Below, piece after piece: positions 3,801 through 51,366 of a DNA stretch of 64,000 nucleotides (within the stretch, counting starts at the first letter, position 1; each line of letters opens with the position of its first letter). A program made the position numbers and the translations under genes. The notes below the pieces were generated by a model. It ran no database searches. It was not told the DNA's origin and saw nothing but the letters and a program-made list of their open reading frames with translations. This DNA comes from Mobula hypostoma (lineage: Eukaryota): the NCBI RefSeq assembly GCF_963921235.1, contig NC_086097.1, positions 159,032,001-159,096,000 on the forward strand. Direction: 5' to 3'.

Positions 3801-4094
3801 ACCATATATAACCATATAACAATTACAGCACGGAAACAGGCCATCTCGGTCCTTCTAGTCCGTGCCAAACCCTTACTCTCACCTAGCTGCACCACCCTGC
3901 ACTCAGCCCATAACCCTCCATTCCTTTCCTGTCCATATAGCTGTCCAATTTAACTTTAAGCGACAACATCGAACCTGCCTCAACCACTTCTGCTGGAAGT
4001 TCGTTCCACACAGCTACCACTCTCTGAGTAAAAAAGTTCCCCCTCATGTTACCCCTAAACTTTTGCCCTTTAACTCTCAACTCATGTCTTTTTT
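3801..4094 (-). mobile_element. CR1-like LINE 3' fragment (host of the PLE; resumes at 8794-8860)
   Basis: Minus-strand RGNFFTQRVVAVWNELP… C-terminus and (TTATATGG)-type tail. Confidence 0.85.
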
Positions 4095-4139
4095 CGCATC
4101 TGCTCTCAGGATGAGGCTTTTCATTCTAGGACGAGGGAG

Positions 4140-4883
4140 ATGTCTTCATTTTTTAAAGAAAGGGGCTTCCCTTCCTCCACTATCAACTCTGCTCTTAAAC
4201 GCATCTCCCCCATTTCACGTACATCTGCTCTCACTCCATCCTCCCACCACCCCACTAGGAATAGGGTTCCCCTGGTCCTCACCTACTACCCCACCAGCCT
4301 CCGGGTCCAACATATTATTCTCCGTAACTTCCGCCACCTCCAACGGGATCCCACCACTAAGCATATCTTTCCCTCCCCGCCTCTCTCTGCATTCCGCAGG
4401 GATCGCTCCCTACACAACTCCCTTGTCCATTCGTCCCCCCCATCCCTCCCCACTGATCTCCCTGCTGGCACTTATCCGTGTAAGCGGAACAAGTGCTACA
4501 CATGCCCTTACACTTCCTCCCTTACCACCATTCAGGGCCCCAAACAGTCCTTCCAGGTGAGGCATCACTTCACCTGTGAGTCGACTGGGGTGATATACTG
4601 CGTCCGGTGCTCCCGATGTGGCCTTTTATATATTGGTGAGACCCGACGCAGACTGGGAGACTGCTTTGCTGAACATCTACGCTCTGTCCGCCAGAGAAAG
4701 CAGGATCTCCCAGTGGCCACACATTTTAATTCCACATCCCATTCCCATTCTGACATGTCTATCCACGGCCTCCTCTACTGTAAAGATGAAGCCACACTCA
4801 GGTTGGAGGAACAACACCTTATATTCCGTCTGGGTAGCCTCCAACCTGATGGCATGAACATTGACTTCTCTAACTTCCGCTAG
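4140..4883 (+). pseudogene. 5'-truncated duplicate of the PLE ORF C-terminus (linker + GIY-YIG)
   Basis: The 247 aa are nearly identical to the last 247 aa of 5275-8403 (visible differences Y/H, C/R, H/Y). Confidence 0.9.
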
Positions 4884-5176
4884 GCCCCACCTCCCCCTCG
4901 TACCCCATCTGTTACTCTTTTTATGCACACATTCTTTCTCTCACTCTCCTTTTTCTCCCTCTGTCCCTCTGAATATACCTCTTGCCCATCCTCTGGGTCA
5001 CCCCCACCCCCCGTCTTTCTTCCCGGACCTCCTGTCCCATGATCCTCTCGTATCCCCTTCTGCCTATCACCTGTCCAGCTCTCGGCTCCATCCCTCCCCC
5101 TCCTGTCTTCTCCTATCATTTTGCATCTCCCCCTCCCCCTCCAGCTTTCAAATCCCTTACTCACTCTTCCTTCAGT

Positions 5177-5214
5177 TAGTCCTGACGAAGGGTCTCGGCC
5201 TGAAACGTCGACTG
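5177..5214 (+). ncRNA. Minimal type-I hammerhead ribozyme (upstream pLTR)
   Basis: TAGTC-CTGACGA-AGGGTCTCGGCCT-GAAA-CG-TC^GACTG. Conserved CUGANGA and GAAA..UH core; stem I TAGTC/GACTG; short stem II; palindromic ACGU helix III. Predicted cleavage after 5209. Confidence 0.85.
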
Positions 5215-5274
5215 CGCCTCTTCGCAGTTGGTGGATGCTGCCTGGCCTGCTGCGTTCACCAGCAACTTTGATGT

Positions 5275-8200
5275 ATGTTGCTTGAATTTCCAGCATCTGC
5301 AGAATTCCTGTTGTTTGCGTTTAAATTCACTACTGCGAAGCCTCTTCCGGTGATGCCTACACCGAAGAAGTTTAGATCCTCTCTTCGACGGGAGTTCAGT
5401 GAAACCATCTCTCACTGCTCCCCATCTGTGATTTCTTCGGCTCTTCAACTTTTCGACCAGACTTTGACTCAAACTCGCTATCACTGCCGTGTATCCTTTC
5501 TTGGAACGTGCCTCCGTCGCCAACTTACTCCAGTTGGCTTTAGGATTCGTTTCCAAGCCTCTCAATTTGGACCTTCTGAGGATCCCAGGTACTCACATTT
5601 CATTGACTCTGCCTCTCGCCGCTTCTCCCGTCAAGCTCTGAAGGCGACGCTCTCCGCCATGAGGAGGTACTTGGTGTCCCTATCCCAGACCCTTCCACAC
5701 TTTCGGGACACTTTCTTCGCCGTCTGTAATGGTCCTACCCGATATTTCATCCTCCGTCGGATCCACGCCTGCAATCGCCGTTTCTTTGACTTTGTCATGT
5801 TAGGCAAAGATCGCAAGATCTTACATCTACGGACTGCAGAGCCTGCCGGCCCCGACGCTAGCAGGCATGAACTTTCGGTTGCGGCCCCTGCCGTTGGTCT
5901 CGGCGGCTCCAACACCTCAGGACATATTCAAAACCCGGACTCCAGCAACGACCATGGAGACATTCAAAGCGATCGCGCAACCACCAACTGCGACTCCAGC
6001 CTTGAACTCCAGGCCGGGTCTTTATGTGCTGCTGTTGTGACTCCCGTCTCCCCTTCCCCCACCACCACTCCGCAGCCCCGTCTTCCTCAGATCCCACCGT
6101 CAACTCCTGGGCCCTCAGAGGCTCCATCTTCCTCTCACCCCAACCCTCCCCTCTCCATTGACACCCCCAGCCTCCCCCCTCCCCCCTCTGATCCCAGCTC
6201 TCATCCGTGCCGGGTCTTTACCATCCCCTCCGACCTTCAACTGTCGGAGGCAGAACGCTCTGTTCTCAGTAAGGGCCTCACGTTTGTCCCCCTTCGCCCA
6301 CACCTCAGCGAGTTCCGTGTTCGCCATGATGCGGAACTTTTCTTCCGCCGTCTCCGTCTCCGAGCCTACTTCTTCGGCAAGGACTCTTCCACCCCCACCG
6401 ATGACCCCTTCTCCTGTCTTCATCCCTCCTCTTCTTCATGGACACCCCGCTCTGGTCTTCTGCCTGCTCTGGATCTCTTTATTGCCAACTGCCGACGGGA
6501 CATCAACCGTCTCGACTTCACCGCACCTTGTCCCCATTCCAACCTCACTCCTTCGGAATGCTCTGTTCTCCACTCCCTCCGCACTAATCCTAACATTATT
6601 ATTAAACCCGCTGATAAGGGGGGTGCTGTTGTAGTCTGGCGTACTGACCTCTACCTTGCCGAGGCACAGCGACAACTCGCGGATACCTCCTCTTATTTAC
6701 CCCTCGATCGTGACCCCACTAAGGAGCACCAGGCCATTGTCTCCCACACTATCAACGACTTTATCCGCTCAGGGGATCTCCCATCCACTGCTACCAACCT
6801 TATAGTTCCCACACCCCGCACTTCCCGTTTCTACCTCCTACCCAAGATCCACAAACCTGCCTGTCCTGGCCGACCTATTGTCTCAGCTTGCTCCTGCCCC
6901 ACCGAACTCGTTTCTGCATACCTCGACACTGTTTTATCACCCCTTGTTCAATCCCTTCCGACCTATGTTCGTGACACTTCTCACGCTCTTAAACTTTTCA
7001 ATGATTTTAAGTTCCCTGGCCCCCACCGCTTTATTTTCACCTTGGATGTCCAGTCCCTATATACTTCCATCCCCCATCAGGAAGGTCTCAAAGCTCTACG
7101 CTTCTTTTTGGATTCCAGACCTAATCAGTTCCCCTCTACCACCACTCTGCTCCGTCTGGCAGAATTAGTCCTTACTCTTAATAATTTCTCCTTTTGCTCC
7201 TCCCATTTCCTCCAAACTAAAGGTGTAGCTATGGGCACCCGTATGGGTCCTAGCTATGCCTGCCTTTTTGTTGGGTTTGTGGAACAATCTATGTTCCGGG
7301 CCTATTCTGGTATCTGTCCCCCACTTTTCCTTCGCTACATCGACGACTGCATTGGCGCTGCTTCCTGCACGCATGCAGAACTCGTTGACTTTATTAACTT
7401 TGCCTCCAACTTTCACCCTGCCCTCAAGTTTACCTGGTCCATTTCTGACACCTCCCTCCCCTTTCTAGATCTTTCTGTCTCTGTCTCTGGAGACAGCTTA
7501 TCCACTGATGTCTACTATAAGCCTACTGACTCTCACAACTATCTGGACTATTCCTCTTCTCACCCTGTCTCTTGCAAAAACGCCATCCCCTTCTCGCAAT
7601 TCCTCCGTCTCCGCCGCATCTGCTCTCAGGATGAGGCTTTTCATTCTAGGACGAGGGAGATGTCTTCATTTTTTAAAGAAAGGGGCTTCCCTTCCTCCAC
7701 TATCAACTCTGCTCTTAAACGCATCTCCCCCATTTCACGTACATCTGCTCTCACTCCATCCTCCCACCACCCCACTAGGAATAGGGTTCCCCTGGTCCTC
7801 ACCTACCACCCCACCAGCCTCCGGGTCCAACATATTATTCTCCGTAACTTCCGCCACCTCCAACGGGATCCCACCACTAAGCATATCTTTCCCTCCCCGC
7901 CTCTCTCTGCATTCCGCAGGGATCGCTCCCTACACAACTCCCTTGTCCATTCGTCCCCCCCATCCCTCCCCACTGATCTCCCTGCTGGCACTTATCCGTG
8001 TAAGCGGAACAAGTGCTACACATGCCCTTACACTTCCTCCCTTACCACCATTCAGGGCCCCAAACAGTCCTTCCAGGTGAGGCATCACTTCACCTGTGAG
8101 TCGACTGGGGTGATATACTGCGTCCGGTGCTCCCGATGTGGCCTTTTATATATTGGTGAGACCCGACGCAGACTGGGAGACCGCTTTGCTGAACATCTAC

Positions 8201-8403
8201 GCTCTGTCCGCCAGAGAAAGCAGGATCTCCCAGTGGCCACACATTTTAATTCCACATCCCATTCCCATTCTGACATGTCTATCCACGGCCTCCTCTACTG
8301 TAAAGATGAAGCCACACTCAGGTTGGAGGAACAATACCTTATATTCCGTCTGGGTAGCCTCCAACCTGATGGCATGAACATTGACTTCTCTAACTTCCGC
8401 TAG
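5275..8403 (+). CDS. Penelope-like element (Neptune-type) polyprotein: reverse transcriptase + GIY-YIG endonuclease, uninterrupted 1042 aa
   Basis: PLE RT motifs IIIKPADKGGAVVV, FYLLPKIHK, GRPIVS, LDVQSLYTSIP, GVAMGTRMGPSYA, LRYIDD and VYYKPTD. Cys-rich linker CKRNKCYTC followed by VIYCVRCSRCGLLYIGET..R..EH (GIY-YIG). No stops or frameshifts. Confidence 0.95.
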   Translation: MLLEFPASAEFLLFAFKFTTAKPLPVMPTPKKFRSSLRREFSETISHCSPSVISSALQLFDQTLTQTRYHCRVSFLGTCLRRQLTPVGFRIRFQASQFGPSEDPRYSHFIDSASRRFSRQALKATLSAMRRYLVSLSQTLPHFRDTFFAVCNGPTRYFILRRIHACNRRFFDFVMLGKDRKILHLRTAEPAGPDASRHELSVAAPAVGLGGSNTSGHIQNPDSSNDHGDIQSDRATTNCDSSLELQAGSLCAAVVTPVSPSPTTTPQPRLPQIPPSTPGPSEAPSSSHPNPPLSIDTPSLPPPPSDPSSHPCRVFTIPSDLQLSEAERSVLSKGLTFVPLRPHLSEFRVRHDAELFFRRLRLRAYFFGKDSSTPTDDPFSCLHPSSSSWTPRSGLLPALDLFIANCRRDINRLDFTAPCPHSNLTPSECSVLHSLRTNPNIIIKPADKGGAVVVWRTDLYLAEAQRQLADTSSYLPLDRDPTKEHQAIVSHTINDFIRSGDLPSTATNLIVPTPRTSRFYLLPKIHKPACPGRPIVSACSCPTELVSAYLDTVLSPLVQSLPTYVRDTSHALKLFNDFKFPGPHRFIFTLDVQSLYTSIPHQEGLKALRFFLDSRPNQFPSTTTLLRLAELVLTLNNFSFCSSHFLQTKGVAMGTRMGPSYACLFVGFVEQSMFRAYSGICPPLFLRYIDDCIGAASCTHAELVDFINFASNFHPALKFTWSISDTSLPFLDLSVSVSGDSLSTDVYYKPTDSHNYLDYSSSHPVSCKNAIPFSQFLRLRRICSQDEAFHSRTREMSSFFKERGFPSSTINSALKRISPISRTSALTPSSHHPTRNRVPLVLTYHPTSLRVQHIILRNFRHLQRDPTTKHIFPSPPLSAFRRDRSLHNSLVHSSPPSLPTDLPAGTYPCKRNKCYTCPYTSSLTTIQGPKQSFQVRHHFTCESTGVIYCVRCSRCGLLYIGETRRRLGDRFAEHLRSVRQRKQDLPVATHFNSTSHSHSDMSIHGLLYCKDEATLRLEEQYLIFRLGSLQPDGMNIDFSNFR

Positions 8404-8695
8404 GCCCCACCTCCCCCTCGTACCCCATCTGTTACTCTTTTTATGCACACATTCTTTCTCTCACTCTCCTTTTTCTCCCTCTGTCCCTCTGAATATACCT
8501 CTTGCCCATCCTCTGGGTCACCCCCCCCCCCGTCTTTCTTCCCGGACCTTCTGTCCCATGATCCTCTCGTATCCCCTTCTGCCTATCACCTGTCCAGCTC
8601 TCGGCTCCATCCCTCCCCCTCCTGTCTTCTCCTATCATTTTGCATCTCCCCCTCCCCCTCCAGCTTTCAAATCCCTTACTCACTCTTCCTTCAGT

Positions 8696-8733
8696 TAGTC
8701 CTGACGAAGGGTCTCGGCCTGAAACGTCGACTG
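8696..8733 (+). ncRNA. Minimal type-I hammerhead ribozyme (downstream pLTR)
   Basis: Identical to 5177-5214; predicted cleavage after 8728. Confidence 0.85.
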
Positions 8734-9339
8734 CGCCTCTTCCTATAGATGCTGCCTGGCCTGCTGCGTTCACCAGCAACTTTGATGTATGTTCCTTTTG
8801 TTTGAATCTCCCCCACTCTCAATGGAAAAAGCCTATCCATGTCAATTCTATTTATCCCCCTAGATACAGTGTGTGGTGGTACTGTGAGGAATTACGGGTA
8901 GATGACAGGGCAGTATTTCACTCAGTGTCATGAGTTGAAGTGTAACATGGGTTCAAAATTGAAAATGATGATGAATACAGGACAAGAGAGGGTGATTGAA
9001 AAGCACGTAATATACAGAATAAGGTAGATGATTTTGCAGCGCATTTAGAGTTTGGCAGGTATGAAGTTGTGGGCATTGCTGAGTTATGACTGAAAGATCA
9101 TGGTTGGGAAATTAACACCCAAGGAAAGGACAGGCAGGTAAGCAGAAGTGGTGGAATGGCTCTGTTGGTAAAAAAAATAAATAAATCGGCTCCTGACAAA
9201 GAGGTAATATAGGATCGGAAGATGTAGAGTCCTTGTCGGTAGAGTTAAGAAACTGCAAGGTTAAAAAGACTCTGATGGTAGTTATAAACAATCCTCTGAA
9301 TAGTAAAGTTCTAAAGTTAAATAAATTGAGAATTGGTGG

Positions 9340-11931
9340 ATGTTGTGTTCCTGGATTTTTAGAAGGCCTTTCATAAGGTGCCACTCATGAGGCTGTTTAT
9401 CAAGTTAAGAGCCTATGGTATTACAAGAAAGTTACTAGCATGGTTAGAGCATTGGCTGATTGGTAGGAGGCAGAGAGTGGGAATAAAAGGACATTTTCTG
9501 GTTGGCTGCCAGTGACTAGTGGTGTTCTGCAGCGGTCGGTGTTGGGACGGTATGTTTTTACACTGTATATCAATGATTTAAATAATGGCATTGTTGCCAA
9601 GTTTGCAGATGTTACGAAGATTGGCGGAGGGGCAAGTAGTGTTGAGGAAACTGGAAAGCTGCAGAAGGACTTAGACAGATTAGGAGAATGGGCAAAAAAG
9701 TAGCAAATGAAATACAGGTGTCCCCCGCTTTTCGAACATTCGCTTTACGAAACCTCACTGTTACGAAAGACCTACATTAGTTACCTGTTTTCGCTAACAG
9801 AAGGTGTTTTCACTGTTACGAAAAAAGGCAATGCGCAAAAAAACAGCGCGCGCCCCGAGCAGCCGCTCTCCCCCCGGATTAGGAATGGTAATCTTGCCAG
9901 CATTGCTTAAATACGTGCCTGTGAGCAGTCGTTTGCAAGGTGAGTTCTAAGGTATCAGAAAAGCCTAAAAGAGCTCATAAGGGTGTTACACTTTGCTTAA
10001 AACTAGACATAATTAAGCATTTTGATCGTGGTGAACGAAATAAGGACAAAGTGAGTTTGGCTTGTGGAAGTTGACGAAGATGATGTTGAAGAGGTTTTGG
10101 CATCCCATGACCAAGAACTGATAGATAAAGAGCTGATGCAATTGGAATAGGAAAGGATAACAATCAAAACCGAATGCAGTAGCGAATGGACTGAGAGTGA
10201 AGCCGTCCAGGAACTGAACGTGAAGCAACTGCGTGAATTTTCACTGCAATGATAAAGTATGACTTTAATTTTGAAAGGGTACATCAGTTTAGGGTATATT
10301 TGCAGGATGGTTTGAGTGCTTACAAAGAACTGTATGATAGAAAAATGTGCAAGGCTAGCAGTCAAGCATACTGTCGTTTTTCAAGCCTTCCACATCAGCC
10401 ACAGCAGATGACGAACCTCGACCTTTGACATCAAGGCAGGCAGAGATAGAAGAAGATGACTTGCCTGCCCTGATCAACGATGGGATGACACCCCAGTGGT
10501 CCCAACCTCTGGGCCGCGTTCAGATACCAATCTGCGGAGAATGCAGCAGTAGCCGGGAGGCACCCAGCACATCTTTAAGAAAAAAGCTGAAACAAACAAG
10601 CTAATTAATTAGGTGCCACCCGGTACGTAAATATTGGCCCAGAGGCGATGTATTTTTATGTGTCATTTGGTATGATTTGGCAGCTTCATAGCTTAAAGGT
10701 TACTGGAGAGGGTGTTTCTGCCGAGAGCGCTTGCGTGAGATGTTCTGCCGAGAGCGCTTGCGCCATGTTTCTGCCAAGAGCGCTTGCGTGAGATTTTCGC
10801 TATGGAGAACAGTGCAGGCAATGGTTGTAGAAAAGTATTTCTATTTTATATAGGCAGTGTATTTAACATATCATTCTTGCTTTTACTGTATGTTATTGTT
10901 ATTTTAGGTTTTATGTGTTATTTGGCATGATTTGATAGGTTATTTTTGGGTCTGCGAACGCTCACAAATTTTTCTCATATAAATAAATGGTAATTGCTTC
11001 TTCATTTTACGACATTCCAGCTTACGAATCATTTCATAGGAACGCTGTACCTTCGGATGGCGGGGGAAACCTGTACAATGTTGGAAACTGCATGGTCATG
11101 CACTTTGATAGAAGAAATAAATGTGCAGACTATTTTCTAAATGGGGAGAAAATCCAAAACTCTGAAGTGCAAAGGGACTTGGGAGTCCTTGTGCAGAATA
11201 CCCTAAAGGTTAACTTGCAGGTCAAGGTGGCGGTGAGGAAGGCACATGTCATGTCGGCGGTGAGGAAGGCACATGTCATGTCAGCATTCATTTCAAGAGG
11301 TCTAGAATATATGAGCAGGGATGCGATGCTGAAGATTTATTAGGCACTGGTGAGGCCACACCTTGAGTATTGTGAACAATGTTGGGCTGCTTATCTGAGA
11401 AAAGCTGTGCTGGCATTGGAAAGTGTGGAAAGGGTTCAGAGGAAGTTAACAAAGATGATACTGGGAATGAAAGGGTTATTATACAAGGAACATTTGATGA
11501 CTCTGGGCCTATACTTGCTGGAATTTAGAAGGATGAGGTGGGGGGAGGGATCTCATTGAAACTTTTCAAATGTTGAAAGACCTAGACAGGGTAGATATGG
11601 AAAGGATGTTTCCCATGGTGGGGGAGTCTAGGACAAGAGGGCACAGCATCAGGATAGTGGGGTGTCCATTCAAAACAAAGGGACAGAGACATTTCTTTAG
11701 CCAGAGGGTTGTGAATTTGTGGAATTTGTTAACCACAGGCAGCTCTGGAGGCCAGGTCCCTGGGTATATTTAAGGCAGAGATTGATAGGTTCTTGATTGG
11801 TCATGGCGTTATGGGGAGAAGTTCAGGAGAGAGGGGCTGAGGAGGGAAAAAAAAGTATCAGTCATGATTGAATGGCAGATCAGATTCGATGAGCCAAATG
11901 GCCTAAATCTGCTTCTATGTCTTATGGTCTT
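9340..11931 (+). mobile_element. CR1-like LINE RT-to-3' fragment, interrupted by a Tigger MITE
   Basis: SGVLQRSVLG…YINDL…KFADVTK, RPHLEYC, FFSQRVVNLWN and a CTTATGGTCTT tail. Contains a 27-bp tandem duplication at ~11229-11283. Confidence 0.85.
9715..11073 (+). mobile_element. Tigger/pogo-derived non-autonomous DNA transposon
   Basis: TIRs CAGGTGTCCCCCGC / GCGGGGGAAACCTG with TA TSD. Residual KLDIIKHFDRGER (psq-HTH-like) and acidic EVDEDDVEEVLASHDQEL. Confidence 0.85.
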
Positions 11932-12961: not shown

Positions 12962-13198
12962 CTCGGCTCTATCCCTCCCCCTCCTGTCTTCTCCTATCAT
13001 TTTGCATCTCCCCCTCCCCCTCCAGCTTTCAAATCCCTTACTCACTCTTCCTTCAGTTAGTCCTGACGAAGAGTCTCGGCCTGAAACGTCGACTGCGCTT
13101 CTTCCTATAGATGCTGCTTGGCCTGCTGCGTTCACCAGCAACTTTGATGTGTGTTGCTTGAATTTCCAGCATCTGCAGAATTCCTGTTGTTTGCGTTT
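12962..13198 (+). mobile_element. Short PLE pLTR-only insertion with 13-bp TSD
   Basis: Matches PLE 5081-5322. Flanked by AAAGACATGTGGA at 12949-12961 and 13199-13211. A similar uninterrupted host sequence occurs near 24841. Confidence 0.9.
13058..13095 (+). ncRNA. Hammerhead ribozyme motif in a short PLE-derived insert
   Basis: TAGTC-CTGACGA-AGAGTCTCGGCCT-GAAACGTC-GACTG: core intact, one stem II substitution. Confidence 0.75.
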
Positions 13199-14394: not shown

Positions 14395-16650
14395 CATGTA
14401 CCTATCCAAATTTCTCTTAAATGGTGACATGAACCTTGCATCCACCATTTGCACTGGCAACTCGTTCCATACTCTCACCATCCTCTGAGTGAATAAGTTC
14501 CCTCTCATACTCCCCTTAAACTTTTCACCTTCCACCTTTAACCTTTAACCCATGGCTTCTAATTGTAGTCTTATCCAGCCTCAGTGGAAAAAGACTACTT
14601 GCATTTACCCTGTGCCCCTCATAACATTGTATACCTCTATTGATTCTTCCCTCAATCTTCTACATTCTAGGGAAAAAAGTCCTAACTTTTTCGATCTTTC
14701 CCGATAACTCAGGTACTCCACTCCTGGCAACATCCTTGTAAATTTTCTCTACACTCTTGCAATTTTATTCACATCTTTCCTGCAGGTAGTTGACTAAACT
14801 GGACACAGTAGTCCAAATTAAGCCTCGCCAACATCTTAAACTGTTTCAAAATAACATCTCAGCTCCTGTAATCATACATTGATTTATGCAGCCCAATATG
14901 CCAAAAGATTTATTTACAACCCTATTTACACGTGACAGCACTTTAAAGGAATTATGCATCTGTATTCCCAGATTCCTTTGTTCCACCACACTCATCAGTG
15001 CCCTACCATTCACTGTGTAAGACCTATCCTGGTTGGCCCTACCAAAATATAGACTCCATGTCTGTCTCCTTAGTAAATACAGATCTTCCCCATTTCTTTC
15101 AACTCGACACACAGATTATCACTCTGATCATCTAGAGGACCAATTTTGTGCCTTGCTATCCTTTTGTTCTTAATAAATTTGTAGAAGCCTGTTGGAACCA
15201 TGTATCTATTTTCTGTCTGTGTTGTATTTTGTGGCACCTTTTTTAATGGTAATCTGTCACATGGTTTGGGGTGTAGTAGAAGCAAATGAGTATAGTTATG
15301 TATTAGTACTTGTGGTTAGCACAGGCCATTTTTTTTTTGTTGACCACTGATTTAGTTCGACTGCTTAGTTACACAAATTGGAAAGTTATTAGACCACTTA
15401 AAAACCTATAGAATGCTAATTCTGATATCACTAATTAGAATACATAGTTACGCTGACATCACTATATCACTAATTTAGTTCGACCCCTAGTAAAGCGTTA
15501 ATTGGAACACTATTAGGACGGTTAAATATATATAGAATGCTAATGAGACACTAATTGGGATGTTATTGGAATGCTAACTAGATCGCTAACTTTGTTACTT
15601 CAATAACTTAGTTATGCTCATATTGCTATTAGACCACAAGTTAGACCATAATATCATTAATTTTGTTCGATTTTTTTTGTTACTAGATTATTCCTCTTTG
15701 CTGGCTTCATCATAAAGCATTGAACATACCTTTATTGATTTTGAAATTTGCTATTTGGAAGCACGTCATACAGTGTTGAGTACCCCGGCTTAGTCTCTTG
15801 GTGGTTTTGGTTGGTTTTCAAGTAACTGTGAGCAAGCCCTTAGGATTTTCCTTCACTTTTTCTGCTAGAACAACCTCATGTCTTCTTTTAGCCCTCCAAC
15901 TTTCCTTTTCAATTATTTTCTTACATTTCTTATATTCCTCAAGTACCTCATTTGTTCCTGTCTGCCTATACCTGCTATGCACATCCTTTTTTTTAACCAA
16001 GGCCTCAATATCTCTTGAGAGCTAAGTTTTCTTAAAACTGTTATCCTTGCCTTTTACTCTGACAGAAATATACAAACATTGTACTTTAAAAGTTTCACTT
16101 TTGAAGACCTCCCACTTACCAAGTAGAGTTTTACCAGAACACAACCTGTCTCATTCCACACTTGCAAGATCCTTTATGATACCATCAAAACTGGCCTGAT
16201 TTTCCCAATTTAGAATCTCAATCTGAGGACCAGACCTATTCGTTTCCCTAATTAACTTGAAACTAATGGCATTATGATCACTAGATGCAAAGTGTACCCC
16301 TACACAAACTTCTGTCACCTGCCCTGTCTCATTCCCTAATAGGAAGTCTCCCTAACTGGGACTTCTCTGTACTGATTAAGGAAACTTTCCTGAACACATT
16401 TGACAAATTCCTTCCCATCCAGCCCTTTTACAGTAGGGCAATCCCAGTCAATATGTGGATAGTTAAAATAGCCTTATGTTTCCTGCAACAGTGTGCGATC
16501 TCACTACAAGTTTGCTCCTCTAAGTCCTGTGAACTATTGGTAGTCTATAATATAATCCCAGTAACATGTCATACCATTCTTATTCTTTAGTTCTACCCGT
16601 AAAGCCTCACTAGATGAGCTCTCCTGTCTGTCCTGACTGAACACTGCCGT
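14395..16650 (-). mobile_element. Decayed minus-strand CR1-like LINE, interrupted at 15190-15834
   Basis: Minus-strand CR1-type peptides (YTVNGRAL…EQRNLGI; KSWRAKRRHE…VKENPK). Confidence 0.7.
15190..15834. mobile_element. Candidate solo LTR (Gypsy/ERV-type)
   Basis: Begins TG, ends CA, and is flanked by AGCC (15186-15189, 15835-15838). Removing it restores the CR1 host sequence. Contains internal degenerate ~123-bp repeats. Confidence 0.6.
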
Positions 16651-17517
16651 GACACTTCATTGAGCTGCCTGTCCTGCTCCTCCTGCAACCATGTCTCACA
16701 AATGGCAAAAGATGTACTGGCATTGGAGAGGGCCCAGAGGAGGTTCATGACAATTATTTTGGGAATGAAAGGGTTAACATTTGAAGAGCATTTGATGGTT
16801 CTGGGCCTGTGCTCATTAGAGTTTAGAAGAAAACATGGGAGCAAAATCTTAGAATGGAAACAAGAAGGAATTTCATCTCTCCAAGGGGTGCTAATCTTTC
16901 ATTATCTTTAACCTAGAGAGGTATGGAACCTGAATGTAGACTTTTTTTATTCTATTGGGGACTCAAGGGTTATGACAAGCAGAAAGGCAGGAGAAACTTC
17001 AAATATAAATCAGATAGGTTTATGATCTTACTTATGGTGCATATGGCTTGAGAGATCAGAAGGCCACTTCCTCCTCCGATTTATTTATGTGCTATGCTTT
17101 ATAAATGAAAGCATAGATTATACAGTACTTACAAAAGATGTAGGCACATATATAATAAAGGTTCAAAGGTTCATTTTATTATCAAAGTATGTATGCAGAA
17201 TACAGTTCTGAGATTTGTCTTCTTTAGATAGTCATTAAATACAGGAAACCAAAGAAGTAGTTGAAAGAAAGACATCAATTCCAACCCCCACCCCTGCATG
17301 AAAGAAAAAGAAACAAAACCTTGCAAACCCCAAACCCCCTGAGCTCTCACTCAAAACGTGAACCAGTCGCCCTTCCAAGGGAAGCAACACAAACCAGCAG
17401 CTTCCCAGGGGCAGCTAGAATGCCTAAGACTTTTGCATAATGTGTGTATATTATGTCTTTCCAGTTACCAAATAACACGTAATACTACTGAGCTAATAGA
17501 AAGCTAAGTACTCTTAC

Positions 17518-17652
17518 TCCTGACGAAGGGTCTCAGCCTGAAATGTAGACTGTACCTCTTCCTAGAGATGCTGCCTGGCCTGCTGCATTCACCAGCATCT
17601 TTGATGTGTGTTGCTTGAATTTCCAGCATCTGCAGAATTCCTCGTGTTTGCA
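17518..17652 (+). mobile_element. Short PLE pLTR/HHR insertion with 14-bp TSD
   Basis: CTGACGAAGGGTCTCAGCCTGAAATGTAGACT… flanked by TACTCTTACTCCTG at 17509-17522 and 17653-17666. Confidence 0.85.
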
Positions 17653-17714: not shown

Positions 17715-17863
17715 GTCTCGTGAGTCCTGACGAGGGTCTCGGCCCAAAACCTCGACTGTACTTCTTCCTGTAGATGCTGCCTGGCCTGCAGTATTCCACC
17801 AGCATTTTGTTTGTGTGTGTTGCTTGAATTTCCGGCATCGGTAGATTTCCTCATGTTTGCGTT
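17715..17863 (+). mobile_element. Short PLE pLTR/HHR insertion (degenerate core)
   Basis: AGTCCTGACGAGGGTCTCGGCCCAAAACCTCGACT…GATGCTGCCTGGCCTGC…TTTGCGTT. Confidence 0.8.
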
Positions 17864-20989: not shown

Positions 20990-22526
20990 CAGGTGTCCCC
21001 CGCTTGTCAAACGTTCGCTTTACGAAACCTCACTGTTACGAAAGACCTACATTAGTACCCTGTTTTCGCTTTCAGAAGGTGTTTTCACTGTTACAAAAAA
21101 AAATTCAGTGCGCGATAAAAGGCAGCGCGCGCCCCGAGCAGCCGCTGTCCCCCGGATTCGGAACTGCCTTGCTTTAACATGTGCCTGTGAGCAGCCGTTT
21201 GCAAGATGAGTTCTATGGTATTGGAAAAGCCTGAAAGAGCTCATAAGTGTGTTACATTTACGGTAAAACTAGACATAATTAAGCATTTTGATCATGGTGA
21301 ACGAAGTAAGGACAACGTGTGTTTGGCTTGCGGAAGCTGACGAACATGATGTTGAAGAGGTTTTGGCATCCCATCACCAAGAACTGACAGATGAAGAGCT
21401 GATGCAATTGGAAGGAAAAAGGATAACAATCGAAACCGAATGAGTAATGATAAAGTATGACTTTAATTTTGAAAGGGTACATCGGTTTAGGAGATATTTG
21501 CAGGATGGTTTGAGTCTTTATTAAAGAACTGTGTGATAGAAAAATGCGCGAGGCTCAGCAGTAAGCCAAGCCTTCCACATCAGCCACAGCAGACGATGAA
21601 CCTCGACTTTTGACATGGAGGCGGGCAGTCATAGGAGAAGATGAGCTGCCTGCTCTAATGGAAACAGACGACGAGATGACACCCCAGTGTCCCACCACCC
21701 CAACCCCCAGGCCACGGACAGATACCGATTCGTGGAGAATGCAACGGTAGCCGGGAGGCACACAGCACATCTTTAAGAAAAAAGCCGAAATAAACATGCT
21801 AATTAATTAGGTGCCGCCGACACGTAATTATTGGCCCTGATCAGAGACGACGCAATCGGAAATCGGCGCTGATCTGGGCCGACAATTACGTGTTGTGCGG
21901 CACCTAATTAATTAGCTTGTTTATTTCGGCTTTTTTCTTAAAGATGTGCTGTGTGCCTCCTGGCTGCCGCTGCATTCCTGCATGTTTCGCTCGGCGGCCT
22001 GGAGGGTGGGGACCACTGCACCACCCAACCTGTGATGACTCAGTCTAACACACCATCATCAGTGTGCTCGGCAAGCTATCTTCCCGATTCCCATAAGTGA
22101 TACTACACTGTACATACATTATTTCTACTTTATATTGGCTGTGTATTTTTACGTGTTGTTTGGTATGATTTGGCAGCTTCATAGCTTAAAGGTTACTGGA
22201 GAGAGTGTTCTTGCCAACAGCGCTTGCATGAGATTTTCTGCCAACAGCGCTTGCGTGAGATTTTCACACGGAGAACAGTTCAGTAATGATTGTGGAAAAG
22301 TATTTCTACTTTATATACGCTGTGTATTTATCATATCATTTCTGCTTTTACTATATGTTACTGTTATTTTAGGTTTTATGTGTTACTTTTGGTTATTTTT
22401 GGGTCTGTGAACGCTCACAAAATTTTCCCATATAAATAAATGGTAATTGCTTCTTCACTTTATGACATTTCAGCTTACAGACCATTTCATAGGAACGCTC
22501 TAACTTCGGATGGCGGGGGAAACCTG
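20990..22526 (+). mobile_element. Second copy of the Tigger-derived element, with an internal ~240-bp hairpin
   Basis: Same TIRs and body as 9715-11073; inverted arms at ~21737-21845 and ~21868-21978. Confidence 0.85.
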
Positions 22527-29871: not shown

Positions 29872-29961
29872 GAAGGGTCTCGGCCCGAAACGTCAACTGT
29901 ACCTCTTCCTATAGATGCTGCCTGGCCTGCTGCGTTCACCAGCAATTTTTATGTGTGTTGC
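29872..29961 (+). mobile_element. Very short PLE pLTR insertion (truncated HHR) with 9-bp TSD
   Basis: GAAGGGTCTCGGCCCGAAACGTCAACT…; TGCAGGAAG at 29867-29875 and 29959-29967. Confidence 0.85.
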
Positions 29962-30559
29962 AGGAAGTATTAATTTGATTGCTTGCTGAGAAGCATGGGC
30001 TTAAAGATTCAATGACTTAAAGAAGTCTGGATCTAAAGCTCATCTTAAAAGTGCACTTTCATTAAGTACTGACTTATAAACTGATAATGAAATGGAGAAA
30101 GAAAAAAAGATGCTTTAGATTTGTCGTCATACTTGAAGCATCGAAATTTTGATATTAAAATGAATGAGCAAAATACTACAGATGCTGAAAATCTGAAATA
30201 AAATAGAAAATGTTGGAAATACACAAAAGGTCAGGCAGCATCTGTGGATAAAGAAGCAGAGCTACATTTCCAGATCAATGATTTTAACTTAATTTAATTT
30301 AGATATACAACACAGTAACAGGCCTTTCCAGTCCAACAAGTCCCCGCCACCCAATTACACCCATATGGACTGCAGAGGAAACCGGAGCACCCAGGTGAAA
30401 CCCAAGCATTCACTGATTCAATATCAGAACTAATCACTGTTTCCTGTTTTGTTTATTAAAGAGGAAATTTTCATTAATATGGAAATGTTAAAATCCATAA
30501 ATGGTTCAGCAAATGAAAAGTTTAACAATATATAATAAATCAGTTTACCAATGTAGTTA

Positions 30560-30734
30560 ACAACAGGAATTCTGCAGATGCTGGAAATTCAAGCAACACG
30601 CATCAAAGTTGCTGGTGAACGCAGCAGGCCAGGCAGCATCTCTTGGAAGAGGTCTTGGCCTGAAACGTCGACTGTCCCTCTTCCTAGAGATGCTTCCTGG
30701 CCTGCTGCGTTCACCAACAACTTTGATGCATGTT
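30560..30734. mobile_element. PLE pLTR insertion with an inverted segment (hairpin) and ~15-bp TSD
   Basis: Minus-strand pLTR piece at 30560-~30650 joined to a plus-strand piece at ~30650-30734. TTACCAAT(G/A)TAGTTA at 30545-30559 and 30733-30747. Confidence 0.85.
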
Positions 30735-46289: not shown

Positions 46290-46407
46290 CTATTGTTGAA
46301 ATCCATGGCAAAGCATACAAAATGCTGGAGGAACTCAGCAGATCAGACGGCATCTGTGGAAATGAATAAACAGTCGACATTCTGGCCCGAGAACCTTCAT
46401 CAGGACT
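46290..46407 (-). mobile_element. Older PLE pLTR/HHR relic
   Basis: Reverse complement reads AGTC-CTGATGA-AGGTTCTCGGGCCA-GAATGTC-GACTG…GATGCCGTCTGATCTGCTGAGTTCCTCCAGCAT. Confidence 0.7.
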
Positions 46408-49939: not shown

Positions 49940-50930
49940 AAAGTTTAAAGTTCTTTCTGCAATAAAGATCCAAGCAGTTGTACTTCACCTAAACTCCCAT
50001 TCCCCTATCAGAACGTGTTCACATGAAAAAAGTCCATCACTTCTGACAAAAAAAAGCTTTTGCCATGGGCTCTAACTACGTCTGTCTTTTCGTTGGTTGT
50101 GCAGGACAGTCCTTGTTCCATTTTTTCGATGATACCACAGCCCAACTCTTTCTCTGATTCATCAATGATTGCACTGGTGCTGCTTACTACACTAGTGCAG
50201 AACTCGCCAATTTTATCATCTTTGTAAGTAAGTTCCACCCCGCTCTCAGGTTCACTTAGACCATTCTGACACTTCTCTCTCTTTTCTGGATGTCTGTGCT
50301 TCCATCTCAGGAGACAAGCAATCCACTGGTATTTACCATAAATCCACAAACTGCATGGCTAACTAGGCTACACCTCTTCCCACACTTTTTTTTGAAAGAA
50401 TTTCCATCCCTTTCTCTTAGTTTTTTCATCTAGAACGCAGTTGCTCTCAAGAAGAGGATTTCCACTCCGTGACAGCTGAAATGTCCTCCTTTGTTAGGAA
50501 CTGTGGCTTTTTTGCTACTGTGGTTGATGGAGACTTCTCTTGTAACTCCTCCATTTCTCGTGCTTCTGCTCTCAGCCCACCTCTCTGCAACCAGAATGGA
50601 AATATGGTCTCCCTTGTCCTCACTTTTCACCCAACTGCCCTCGTATCCCACATATTATTATATATCATTTCCACCAGCTGTAAAGGTATCCACTAACCAC
50701 ATCTTCCTGATCGTTTATCACCTTCCACAGGAACCATTCCCTCCATGACTCCCTGGTCCACATCCCTCCTCATCTATCCCTCCCAGATGCTTCGCACTTC
50801 CTCTGGTGGTGCTATATTTATTCCTACATCCCTTCACTCGCCCTTCATCCAGGGACCTAAGAACCTTTCTAGATGAGGTAAGGATTCAATTACATCTTCT
50901 CTAATCTCATCTGCTGCGTTTGGTTAATAG
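49940..50930 (+). pseudogene. Decayed Penelope-like (Neptune-type) RT/linker fragment
   Basis: Colinear similarity to PLE ~7060-8130 (gccatgggc…tgtcttttcgttgg; gattgcactggtgctgct; tatccactggtatttaccataaatccac; catccagggacctaag) with many stops and indels. Confidence 0.75.
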
Positions 50931-51224: not shown

Positions 51225-51366
51225 GGATCAGGACTGATGAAGGGTATTGGTCCAAAACAACAATTGTTTATTCCTTTCCATCGATGCTGCTTGACCTGAT
51301 GAGTTCCTCCAGCCTTTTGTGTGTGCTCCTCTGGATTTCCAGCATCTGCAGAATCTCTTGTGTTTA
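51225..51366 (+). mobile_element. Older PLE pLTR/HHR relic
   Basis: CTGATGAAGGGTATTGGTCCAAAAC…GATGCTGCTTGACCTG…TTTCCAGCATCTGCAGAATCTCTTGTGTTT. Confidence 0.65.

Follow-up and report, generated by a model that had tools for sequence, protein, structure and literature searches.

Internal priming past a predicted ribozyme cut, and a possible circular RNA template for the long copies, in a Penelope-like element of Mobula hypostoma

The insertion at positions 4095-8793 of a 64,000-nt stretch of Mobula hypostoma DNA (the window) is a young Penelope-like retroelement (PLE) with an open reading frame (ORF) for a reverse transcriptase (RT) and a GIY-YIG endonuclease. The ends of related copies in this genome support internal priming downstream of a predicted hammerhead ribozyme cut, with RT running through the junction. 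We propose, with confidence somewhat short of even, that the long partial tandems arise by reverse transcription of a cut-and-rejoined circular RNA, and that the short copies arise from uncut linear RNA; copies of both kinds end at +65 or +102 past the motif. Signed positions are given throughout relative to the predicted hammerhead cut.

Overall architecture of the insertion

The insertion consists of the following parts, in window coordinates:

4095-8793, plus strand: the entire insertion, 1.335 units of a Penelope-like element in partial tandem
4095-5278, plus strand: upstream repeat (pseudo-LTR), 1115 nt up to the cut and then tail; it encodes the last part of the RT thumb and the endonuclease and includes the 3′ UTR
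5178-5213, plus strand: minimal type-I hammerhead motif of the upstream repeat, with helix I AGTC/GACT and a palindromic helix III (ACGT); the cut is predicted after 5209, and 5178 marks the -31 boundary
5224-5233, plus strand: private replacement of 5 nt by 10 nt of inverted local sequence, at +15 to +24 of the upstream repeat; 1 genome match
5272-8403, plus strand: open frame, 1043 aa from stop to stop, likely start ATG 5353, with RT, CX4CX2C linker and GIY-YIG endonuclease
5279-5316, plus strand: optional 'tail' of 37 nt, separating the 3′ end sites +65 and +102
7615-8793, plus strand: downstream repeat, ending at the short start site (+65)
8697-8732, plus strand: downstream hammerhead motif; predicted cut after 8728

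From the predicted cuts after 5209 and 8728, the unit of the focal copy is 3519 nt, and the insertion makes 4699/3519 = 1.335 units. The repeats 4095-5283 and 7615-8797 are 98.8% identical, and those of the insertion are concordant, with 4 differences against 4.0 expected; an ORF fragment (4074-4883) lies within the upstream repeat region. An earlier, sequence-only reading had described about 1.33 seamless head-to-tail units with a 3′ end about 65 nt past the cleavage site. Its length and its end (8793, exactly +65) agree with our measurements, whereas 'seamless' has to be qualified, since the private replacement at 5224-5233 scars the upstream repeat; the cut junction itself is clean. A partial tandem with pseudo-LTRs is found in the focal insertion and at 33 further loci. 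As for a target-site duplication, the focal insertion shows only an imperfect T-rich match.

The focal ORF matches RVT_1 (E=3e-5) and GIY-YIG (E=4e-4) in Pfam, each below the curated cut-off, and its protein has 1918 homologues at E<=1e-20, the nearest named ones being from rays and sharks with up to 94% identity. A single ORF with an RT and, at the C terminus, a GIY-YIG endonuclease, a feature of the EN+ PLEs, is present in the focal copy. Its linker, CKRNKCYTC, fits the CX2-5CXXC pattern given in PMC8557442, and this motif by itself suggests a placement in the Neptune/Nematis clade.

The focal element lies within an older LINE-like fragment (window 3883-4094 and 8794-8860, minus strand), presumably of CR1 type, with paralogous pieces at 14462, 36870 and 55360. 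Reconstruction of the empty site from these paralogues was rejected, since they are too diverged. Elsewhere in the window, a decayed older Penelope-like ORF fragment (50065-50780, 66% identity to the young element) stands upstream of the old ribozyme copy at 51231, and short tandem repeats of 26-27 bp occur at 10713-10796, 11229-11282 and 22212-22265, two of them similar in sequence.

Hammerhead motif and cut junction

The predicted cut positions are set by the motif CTGACGA...GAAACGTC, with the motif and helix I read by hand. A search of Rfam at the gathering score returned no match for a hammerhead, and none is visible in the minimum-free-energy fold of the monomer; the assignment follows the motif and the description in PMC4209133, and self-cleavage is predicted. 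The ribozyme core is conserved across old subfamilies. Minimal hammerheads of PLEs are described in the same paper as cleaving poorly in vitro.

The replacement at 5224-5233 is predicted to sequester the 3′ strand of helix I, and is likely a later repair scar. Its use as a mark of the junction was rejected, for it is unique in the genome and absent from the other 33 junctions. The cut junction is clean in all 34 full-length copies.

Family size and sampled copies

The family is very large. Copies were collected from the genome itself through pattern searches, which gave 66,953 exact matches for a 28-nt tail motif, 24,424 for a motif upstream of the ribozyme and 792 for a motif at the 5′ end of the ORF. 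The main sample consists of 95 ORF-anchored loci from the first 100 of the 792 matches listed, with nearby pairs merged and the window excluded; a further sample holds about 140 shorter loci. Apart from three junction loci, the sampled loci lie on contigs 1 and 2, and the samples are thus not genome-wide. Five loci (L069, L095, L098, L110 and L112) form a subfamily whose proline-rich N-terminal linker is longer by about 210 nt (unit coordinates of the junction, 989|778).

3′ ends and priming sites

The short copies in the window are:

12962-13198, plus strand: -128 to about +108; 13-bp target-site duplication
17514-17651, plus strand: about -30 to +104; a 14-bp duplication overlaps its 5′ end
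17720-17863, plus strand: older copy, about -31 to +107
29872-29961, plus strand: -22 to about +66; 9-bp duplication
30559-30734, both arms: head-to-head pair, plus arm -22 to +65 (short end), minus arm +20 to +102 (long end)
46300-46407, minus strand: older-subfamily copy starting at -31, 3′ end approximate
51231-51365, plus strand: older-subfamily copy with an end near +102

Three of these carry target-site duplications, and the older-subfamily copies reported earlier at 46290 and 51225 are 72-78% identical. All seven contain sequence from both sides of the cut, as the sequence-only reading had noticed; at 30650 this applies to the plus arm, the inverted arm covering +20 to +102.

Two 3′ end sites are seen across the sampled copies, with no 3′ ends at the cut. 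Among 97 tail-anchored copies, 52 end at +59 to +72 and 44 at +95 to +113 (mode +102), while one reads on; values of 59-60 are partly due to a subfamily difference from the reference. The two clusters claimed earlier are thereby borne out beyond chance (96/97), the mode of the longer one being slightly under the claimed value of about 110. A pile-up of 3′ ends at the cut was looked for in copies anchored upstream, where crossing is not presupposed, and none of the 30 ends there. Ribozyme cores continue past the cut in 257 of 258 cases, and the lone miss, a copy of an older subfamily, continues when inspected by eye. Duplications of 8-15 bp surround 21 of the 97 copies, two of these 21 rows being artefacts, compared with 1.7% of shuffled pairs. 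Internal priming downstream of the cut with read-through, as proposed by the sequence-only reading, is supported by these end maps, and has been shown in vitro for a lizard element (PMC11167929).

Insertions in head-to-head arrangement have one short arm (about +65) and one long arm (about +102) in 79 of 81 pairs (p about 1e-21), the 81 pairs being what is left of 91 candidates after removal of five with less than 90% element cover and five duplicates. Each event thus seems to use each start site once. Examples are the window pair at 30559-30734 and loci L070, L082 and L133. The optional one-ended tail of 30-40 bp known from EN+ PLEs is 37 nt here and is borne on one arm in these 79 inverted pairs. 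A special stem-loop at the start sites was considered and rejected, the folds being no more stable than those of shuffled sequences (z -0.64 and -0.05).

5′ ends and template jumps

A sharp 5′ boundary at -31 is seen in the DNA, together with jumps onto it. 5′ ends gather at -30 to -33 in 15 of the 97 tail-anchored copies, at -30/-31 in 30 of 222 cores, and at the boundary in 7 of the 21 duplication-flanked copies. Genome-wide, the end pattern has 2,828 matches at -31 against 228 raw matches at the control position -41. Raw matches number 352 at +1, 257 at +3 and 137 at -1, which become about 300, 170 and 75 after removal of substitutions by eye, as judged from 100 listed rows. The 5′ excess at the cut is mild, and that at -31 is roughly tenfold larger. 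Given the excess at +1, some RNA is probably cut in vivo; a purine-rich partner arm may be a partial cause of this excess. Position -31 lies at the base of helix I and at an initiator-like sequence, TTAGTCC. A cap signature, an extra G before -31 or -30, found no support, with G in 4/16 and 3/14 rows by eye.

Fifty junctions link positions 0 to +8 with -31/-30, mostly from +6/+7 rather than from the cut. Cleaved 3′ ends as jump acceptors were accordingly dropped as a candidate: position 0 shows no peak and accounts for about 7 of the 50 junctions, fewer than +6 or +7. Arrays with 35-39 nt periods are among the jump junctions. The micro-arrays L227/L228 (G000:C1:135602662-135602731) and G000:C18:21203430-21203506 are built of 35-39 nt units, each about a whole minimal hammerhead (-31 to +3..+7). 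Another tandem, G000:C1:61736926-61736990, has a 31-nt period with units beginning exactly at +1, a possible trace of cleaved RNA copied twice. At L153, a jump junction from ORF position 1092 to -31 holds eight A in a row (near 6415-6426, element orientation), as if RT had jumped to the 3′ end of an oligo(A)-tailed RNA.

Some short derivatives have the order X-cut-Y|X′-cut-tail, and in 14 of 31 hand-picked loci X and X′ lie within 5 nt of each other, compared with a shuffled mean of 2.6; with the hotspot removed, agreement is 9/25. By eye, 10 of the 14 agreeing derivatives stop at the common point and four continue through the junction again. Loci L061, L072, L073, L077, L078, L080, L103, L107, L123, L151 and L154 have lost internal sequence and form units of about 270-490 nt, in which the deletion junction recurs within one insertion, is present on both inverted arms or is common to several loci. 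From their sequence these units look like retrozyme-like non-autonomous derivatives, and those that repeat the junction or share it across loci (L072/L073, L077/L078) behave like retrozymes.

Linear uncut RNA whose 5′ end lies at -31, together with template jumps, is the most likely source of the short copies. They give the circle no support, because both the pile-up at -31 and the jump junctions fit such an RNA; in a monomer circle closed at the cut, -31 is not an end.

Long copies and concordance of their repeats

In the long copies the upstream junctions are clean and the repeats mostly match. The ORF is spanned by 47 copies, from 46 loci and the window; 13 of them stop within +21 to +171, none at +1, and 34 cross the upstream cut cleanly. 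Since none of the 47 that ran the whole ORF stops at +1, a linear doubly cleaved monomer cannot be the template, and the earlier statement to this effect holds. Among the 33 long copies that reach -30, 2 stop at -30 to -33 and the other 31 continue beyond -33; such stops are made by 15 of 68 first-pass copies (Fisher p=0.05 for the comparison with the long copies) and in 6 of 6 second passes of jump derivatives. The length profile of the second pass resembles first-pass truncation (KS p=0.39, n=29 and 32), with upstream lengths of up to 2,570 nt.

Within one insertion, both repeats mostly carry a common haplotype, which answers the earlier call for a comparison between them. Minor alleles are common to the upstream and downstream repeats in 108 cases versus 35 when shuffled, and discordant in 46 versus 194. 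This sharing runs across several nested haplotypes, and the unit must therefore have been re-copied repeatedly into both repeats. At 23 concordant loci, a set picked after the data were seen, 75 repeat differences stand against 65 expected from private mutation alone. For all 34 loci the figures are 207 and 144, an excess that stems from at least five loci being mosaics of two haplotypes (L062, L069, L070, L134 and L141); L070 switches haplotype between -85 and +28. No non-element 5′ flank is common to the 34 loci compared.

Insertions longer than two units, which the sequence-only reading suggested looking for, did not turn up: arrays of at least two full units are absent from the 95 loci and from the first 100 of the 792 matches listed. 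Full-length copies are estimated at about 0.6% of all, and at the observed drop-off only about 0.2 two-unit arrays are expected, so this absence has no power and is neutral.

Template of the long copies

What kind of template could give long copies whose junctions are clean and whose repeats mostly agree? It needs to be effectively endless upstream, and a circle is so with no extra step. A circle also accounts for the conserved ribozyme just upstream of the priming sites, because a cut linear RNA carries these sites at its 5′ end, from where the ORF could not be copied. For the long focal insertion the circle is the simplest reading. In the scheme that we favour, transcription would start at about -31, at the initiator-like TTAGTCC, with nuclease trimming to the base of helix I giving the same appearance. 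Transcripts with a single ribozyme would cleave poorly and remain linear, and the short copies made from them would end at -31 or switch to a different RNA position. A full transcript would carry two ribozymes, which could provide the dimer that such motifs need (PMC4209133), and would be cut in that state; a host ligase would then join the 3.5-kb monomer. The protein would nick both target strands and prime at +65 on one and at +102 on the other, and RT would run beyond the junction and eventually drop off, so that a pseudo-LTR of random length is formed anew. Metazoan retrozymes are reported to form circles in vivo and to be ligated by RtcB in vitro (PMC7229834). Against the circle stand the repeats of discordant haplotypes in at least five of the 34 long copies, which are impossible from one circle, and the template jumps, demonstrably frequent in the Penelope-like family of this genome. 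For the lizard element, PMC11167929 describes uncut RNA as the dominant substrate and ribozyme mutants as inserting normally in vitro, and its text reports that no RNA-seq read starts or ends at the cut. The sequence-only reading had named a circle or an uncleaved tandem as the possible templates. The first stands for the long insertion, but the list was incomplete, since linear uncut RNA with template jumping gives the identical geometry, and it is to such RNA that the short copies mostly point.

The strongest rival does without a circle. A linear, uncut and terminally redundant RNA (-31, ORF, tail) would be copied up to -31, where RT, guided by homology, would move to the downstream repeat of this RNA or of a partner, in the manner of retroviral strand transfer, and a seamless long upstream repeat would result. 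We consider this rather unlikely. Position -31 is the dominant discrete 5′ end (2,828 matches versus 228 raw at -41), the 50 junctions onto -31/-30 leave mostly from +6/+7 and not from the cut, 14 of 31 short derivatives have a common 5′ point for both passes (2.6 when shuffled), mosaic repeats such as L070 with its switch between -85 and +28 do exist, and uncut RNA serves as the substrate in vitro, where cleavage is dispensable (PMC11167929). However, the transfer would have to be more than 90% efficient and free of scars (31/33), whereas the visible jumps from -31 are non-homologous and often bring extra bases; the repeats are mostly concordant, and the conserved ribozyme would be left without a role. 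The circle and homologous strand transfer are not separable from DNA.

Three further explanations carry less weight. Long copies could be linear copies of transcripts begun far upstream in an older, longer tandem, from a host promoter or within an array, so that the unit is not re-copied. Such a scenario, with an mRNA of several copies, is outlined for the lizard element in PMC11167929, and young masters with identical repeats would also yield concordant daughters; we nevertheless find it improbable in view of the several nested haplotypes, each with its own variants in both repeats, of upstream repeats without erosion, of the lack of any tandem of at least two units among the 95 loci or the first 100 of 792 matches listed, and, as a weak point, of the lack of common flanks among the 34 loci compared. 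Tandems made at the DNA level, by a second insertion into the element's own end, by unequal exchange or by gene conversion between repeats, are more improbable again: separate insertions would be expected to mark the junction with a tail, a duplication or a scar, and all 34 junctions are clean; concordance is already seen at young loci that have almost no private mutations. Conversion could account for both concordance and mosaics, and the lizard enzyme has been seen in vitro to nick the ORF-pLTR junction of its own element (PMC11167929). Lastly, the two 3′ end sites might be staggered endonuclease cuts resolving a longer free cDNA instead of priming sites, as suggested for the 'tail' in PMC8557442. 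A 37-nt stagger fits the 79 of 81 long/short pairs as well as two priming sites do, but in the lizard element direct measurement placed RT initiation at two adjacent internal sites that match the tail (PMC11167929), and the 8-15 bp duplications at 21 of 97 copies (control 1.7%) are as target priming predicts, which makes staggered cuts very improbable.

Relation to known systems

The architecture and geometry of the element are ordinary for the EN+ PLE class. Elements of the Neptune/Nematis type (Craig et al. 2021, PMC8557442) likewise have a single ORF with RT and C-terminal GIY-YIG, the CX2-5CXXC linker, a pseudo-LTR partial tandem, inverted 5′-truncated partners, a one-ended 30-40 bp tail and a hammerhead in the repeat; judged by the description there, the focal element shows no structural difference, its large family size apart. 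PAc, a Poseidon element of Anolis carolinensis (Frangieh et al. 2024, PMC11167929), shares two adjacent internal RT starts downstream of the ribozyme with the tail between them, extension of both target strands, and uncut RNA as a template. It belongs to another clade, and its starts lie 85-92 nt past the cut at an AC-rich stem-loop, in contrast to +65/+102 and UG-rich sequence in the focal element. The in vitro work in that paper stops at first-strand initiation, and its main text does not address pseudo-LTR regeneration.

Self-cleavage, ligation and reverse transcription over more than a unit, yielding head-to-tail PLE tandems, were proposed by Cervera and De la Pena in 2014 (PMC4209133). 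Together with the in vitro priming of 2024 (PMC11167929), this means that the idea of a circle with internal priming, as also put forward in the sequence-only reading, was already known. As set out in its text, the 2014 proposal comes without genomic end mapping, and in the present genome the short copies speak for linear RNA. Non-LTR retrozymes (PMC7229834; bioRxiv 10.64898/2026.07.22.740005) carry a type I hammerhead in tandem units and are proposed to be mobilised by PLEs. They are described in PMC7229834 as short and non-coding, with circles seen in vivo, whereas the focal element is a 3.5-kb coding unit with a proposed circle. The short internally deleted derivatives of this genome (about 270-490 nt, some with a repeated junction) resemble them, and a short non-coding unit is found only in such derivatives, L103, L123 and L151 for example, and not in the focal element. 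In the literature searched, which comprised main texts and few subscription papers, we found neither the -31 boundary nor the jump junctions nor the 79/81 pairing count reported; the supplements of PMC11167929 map genomic ends and may bear on these points.

Taken as a whole, the following picture is possible, though more tentative than its separate parts. A vertebrate PLE would roll RT on a 3.5-kb coding RNA circle made by its ribozyme, a dimeric enzyme would prime the two strands at +65 and +102, and linear single-ribozyme transcripts starting at -31 would, through template jumps from end to end, give rise to short copies in tens of thousands as well as to new retrozyme-like units.

Rebuilding of the pseudo-LTR in PLEs, which is needed for transcription, has been said to have 'no obvious mechanism' (PMC2377424). 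The present family, being young, intact and of very high copy number, makes this question testable, since what it predicts is sharply defined: 5′ ends of RNA at -31 and +1, a circle of 3.5 kb and paired use of the start sites. Its genomic record argues against plain read-through. If true, a coding circle would tie retrozymes mechanistically to their parent elements, and, once confirmed, it would to our knowledge be the first for an autonomous animal retrotransposon.
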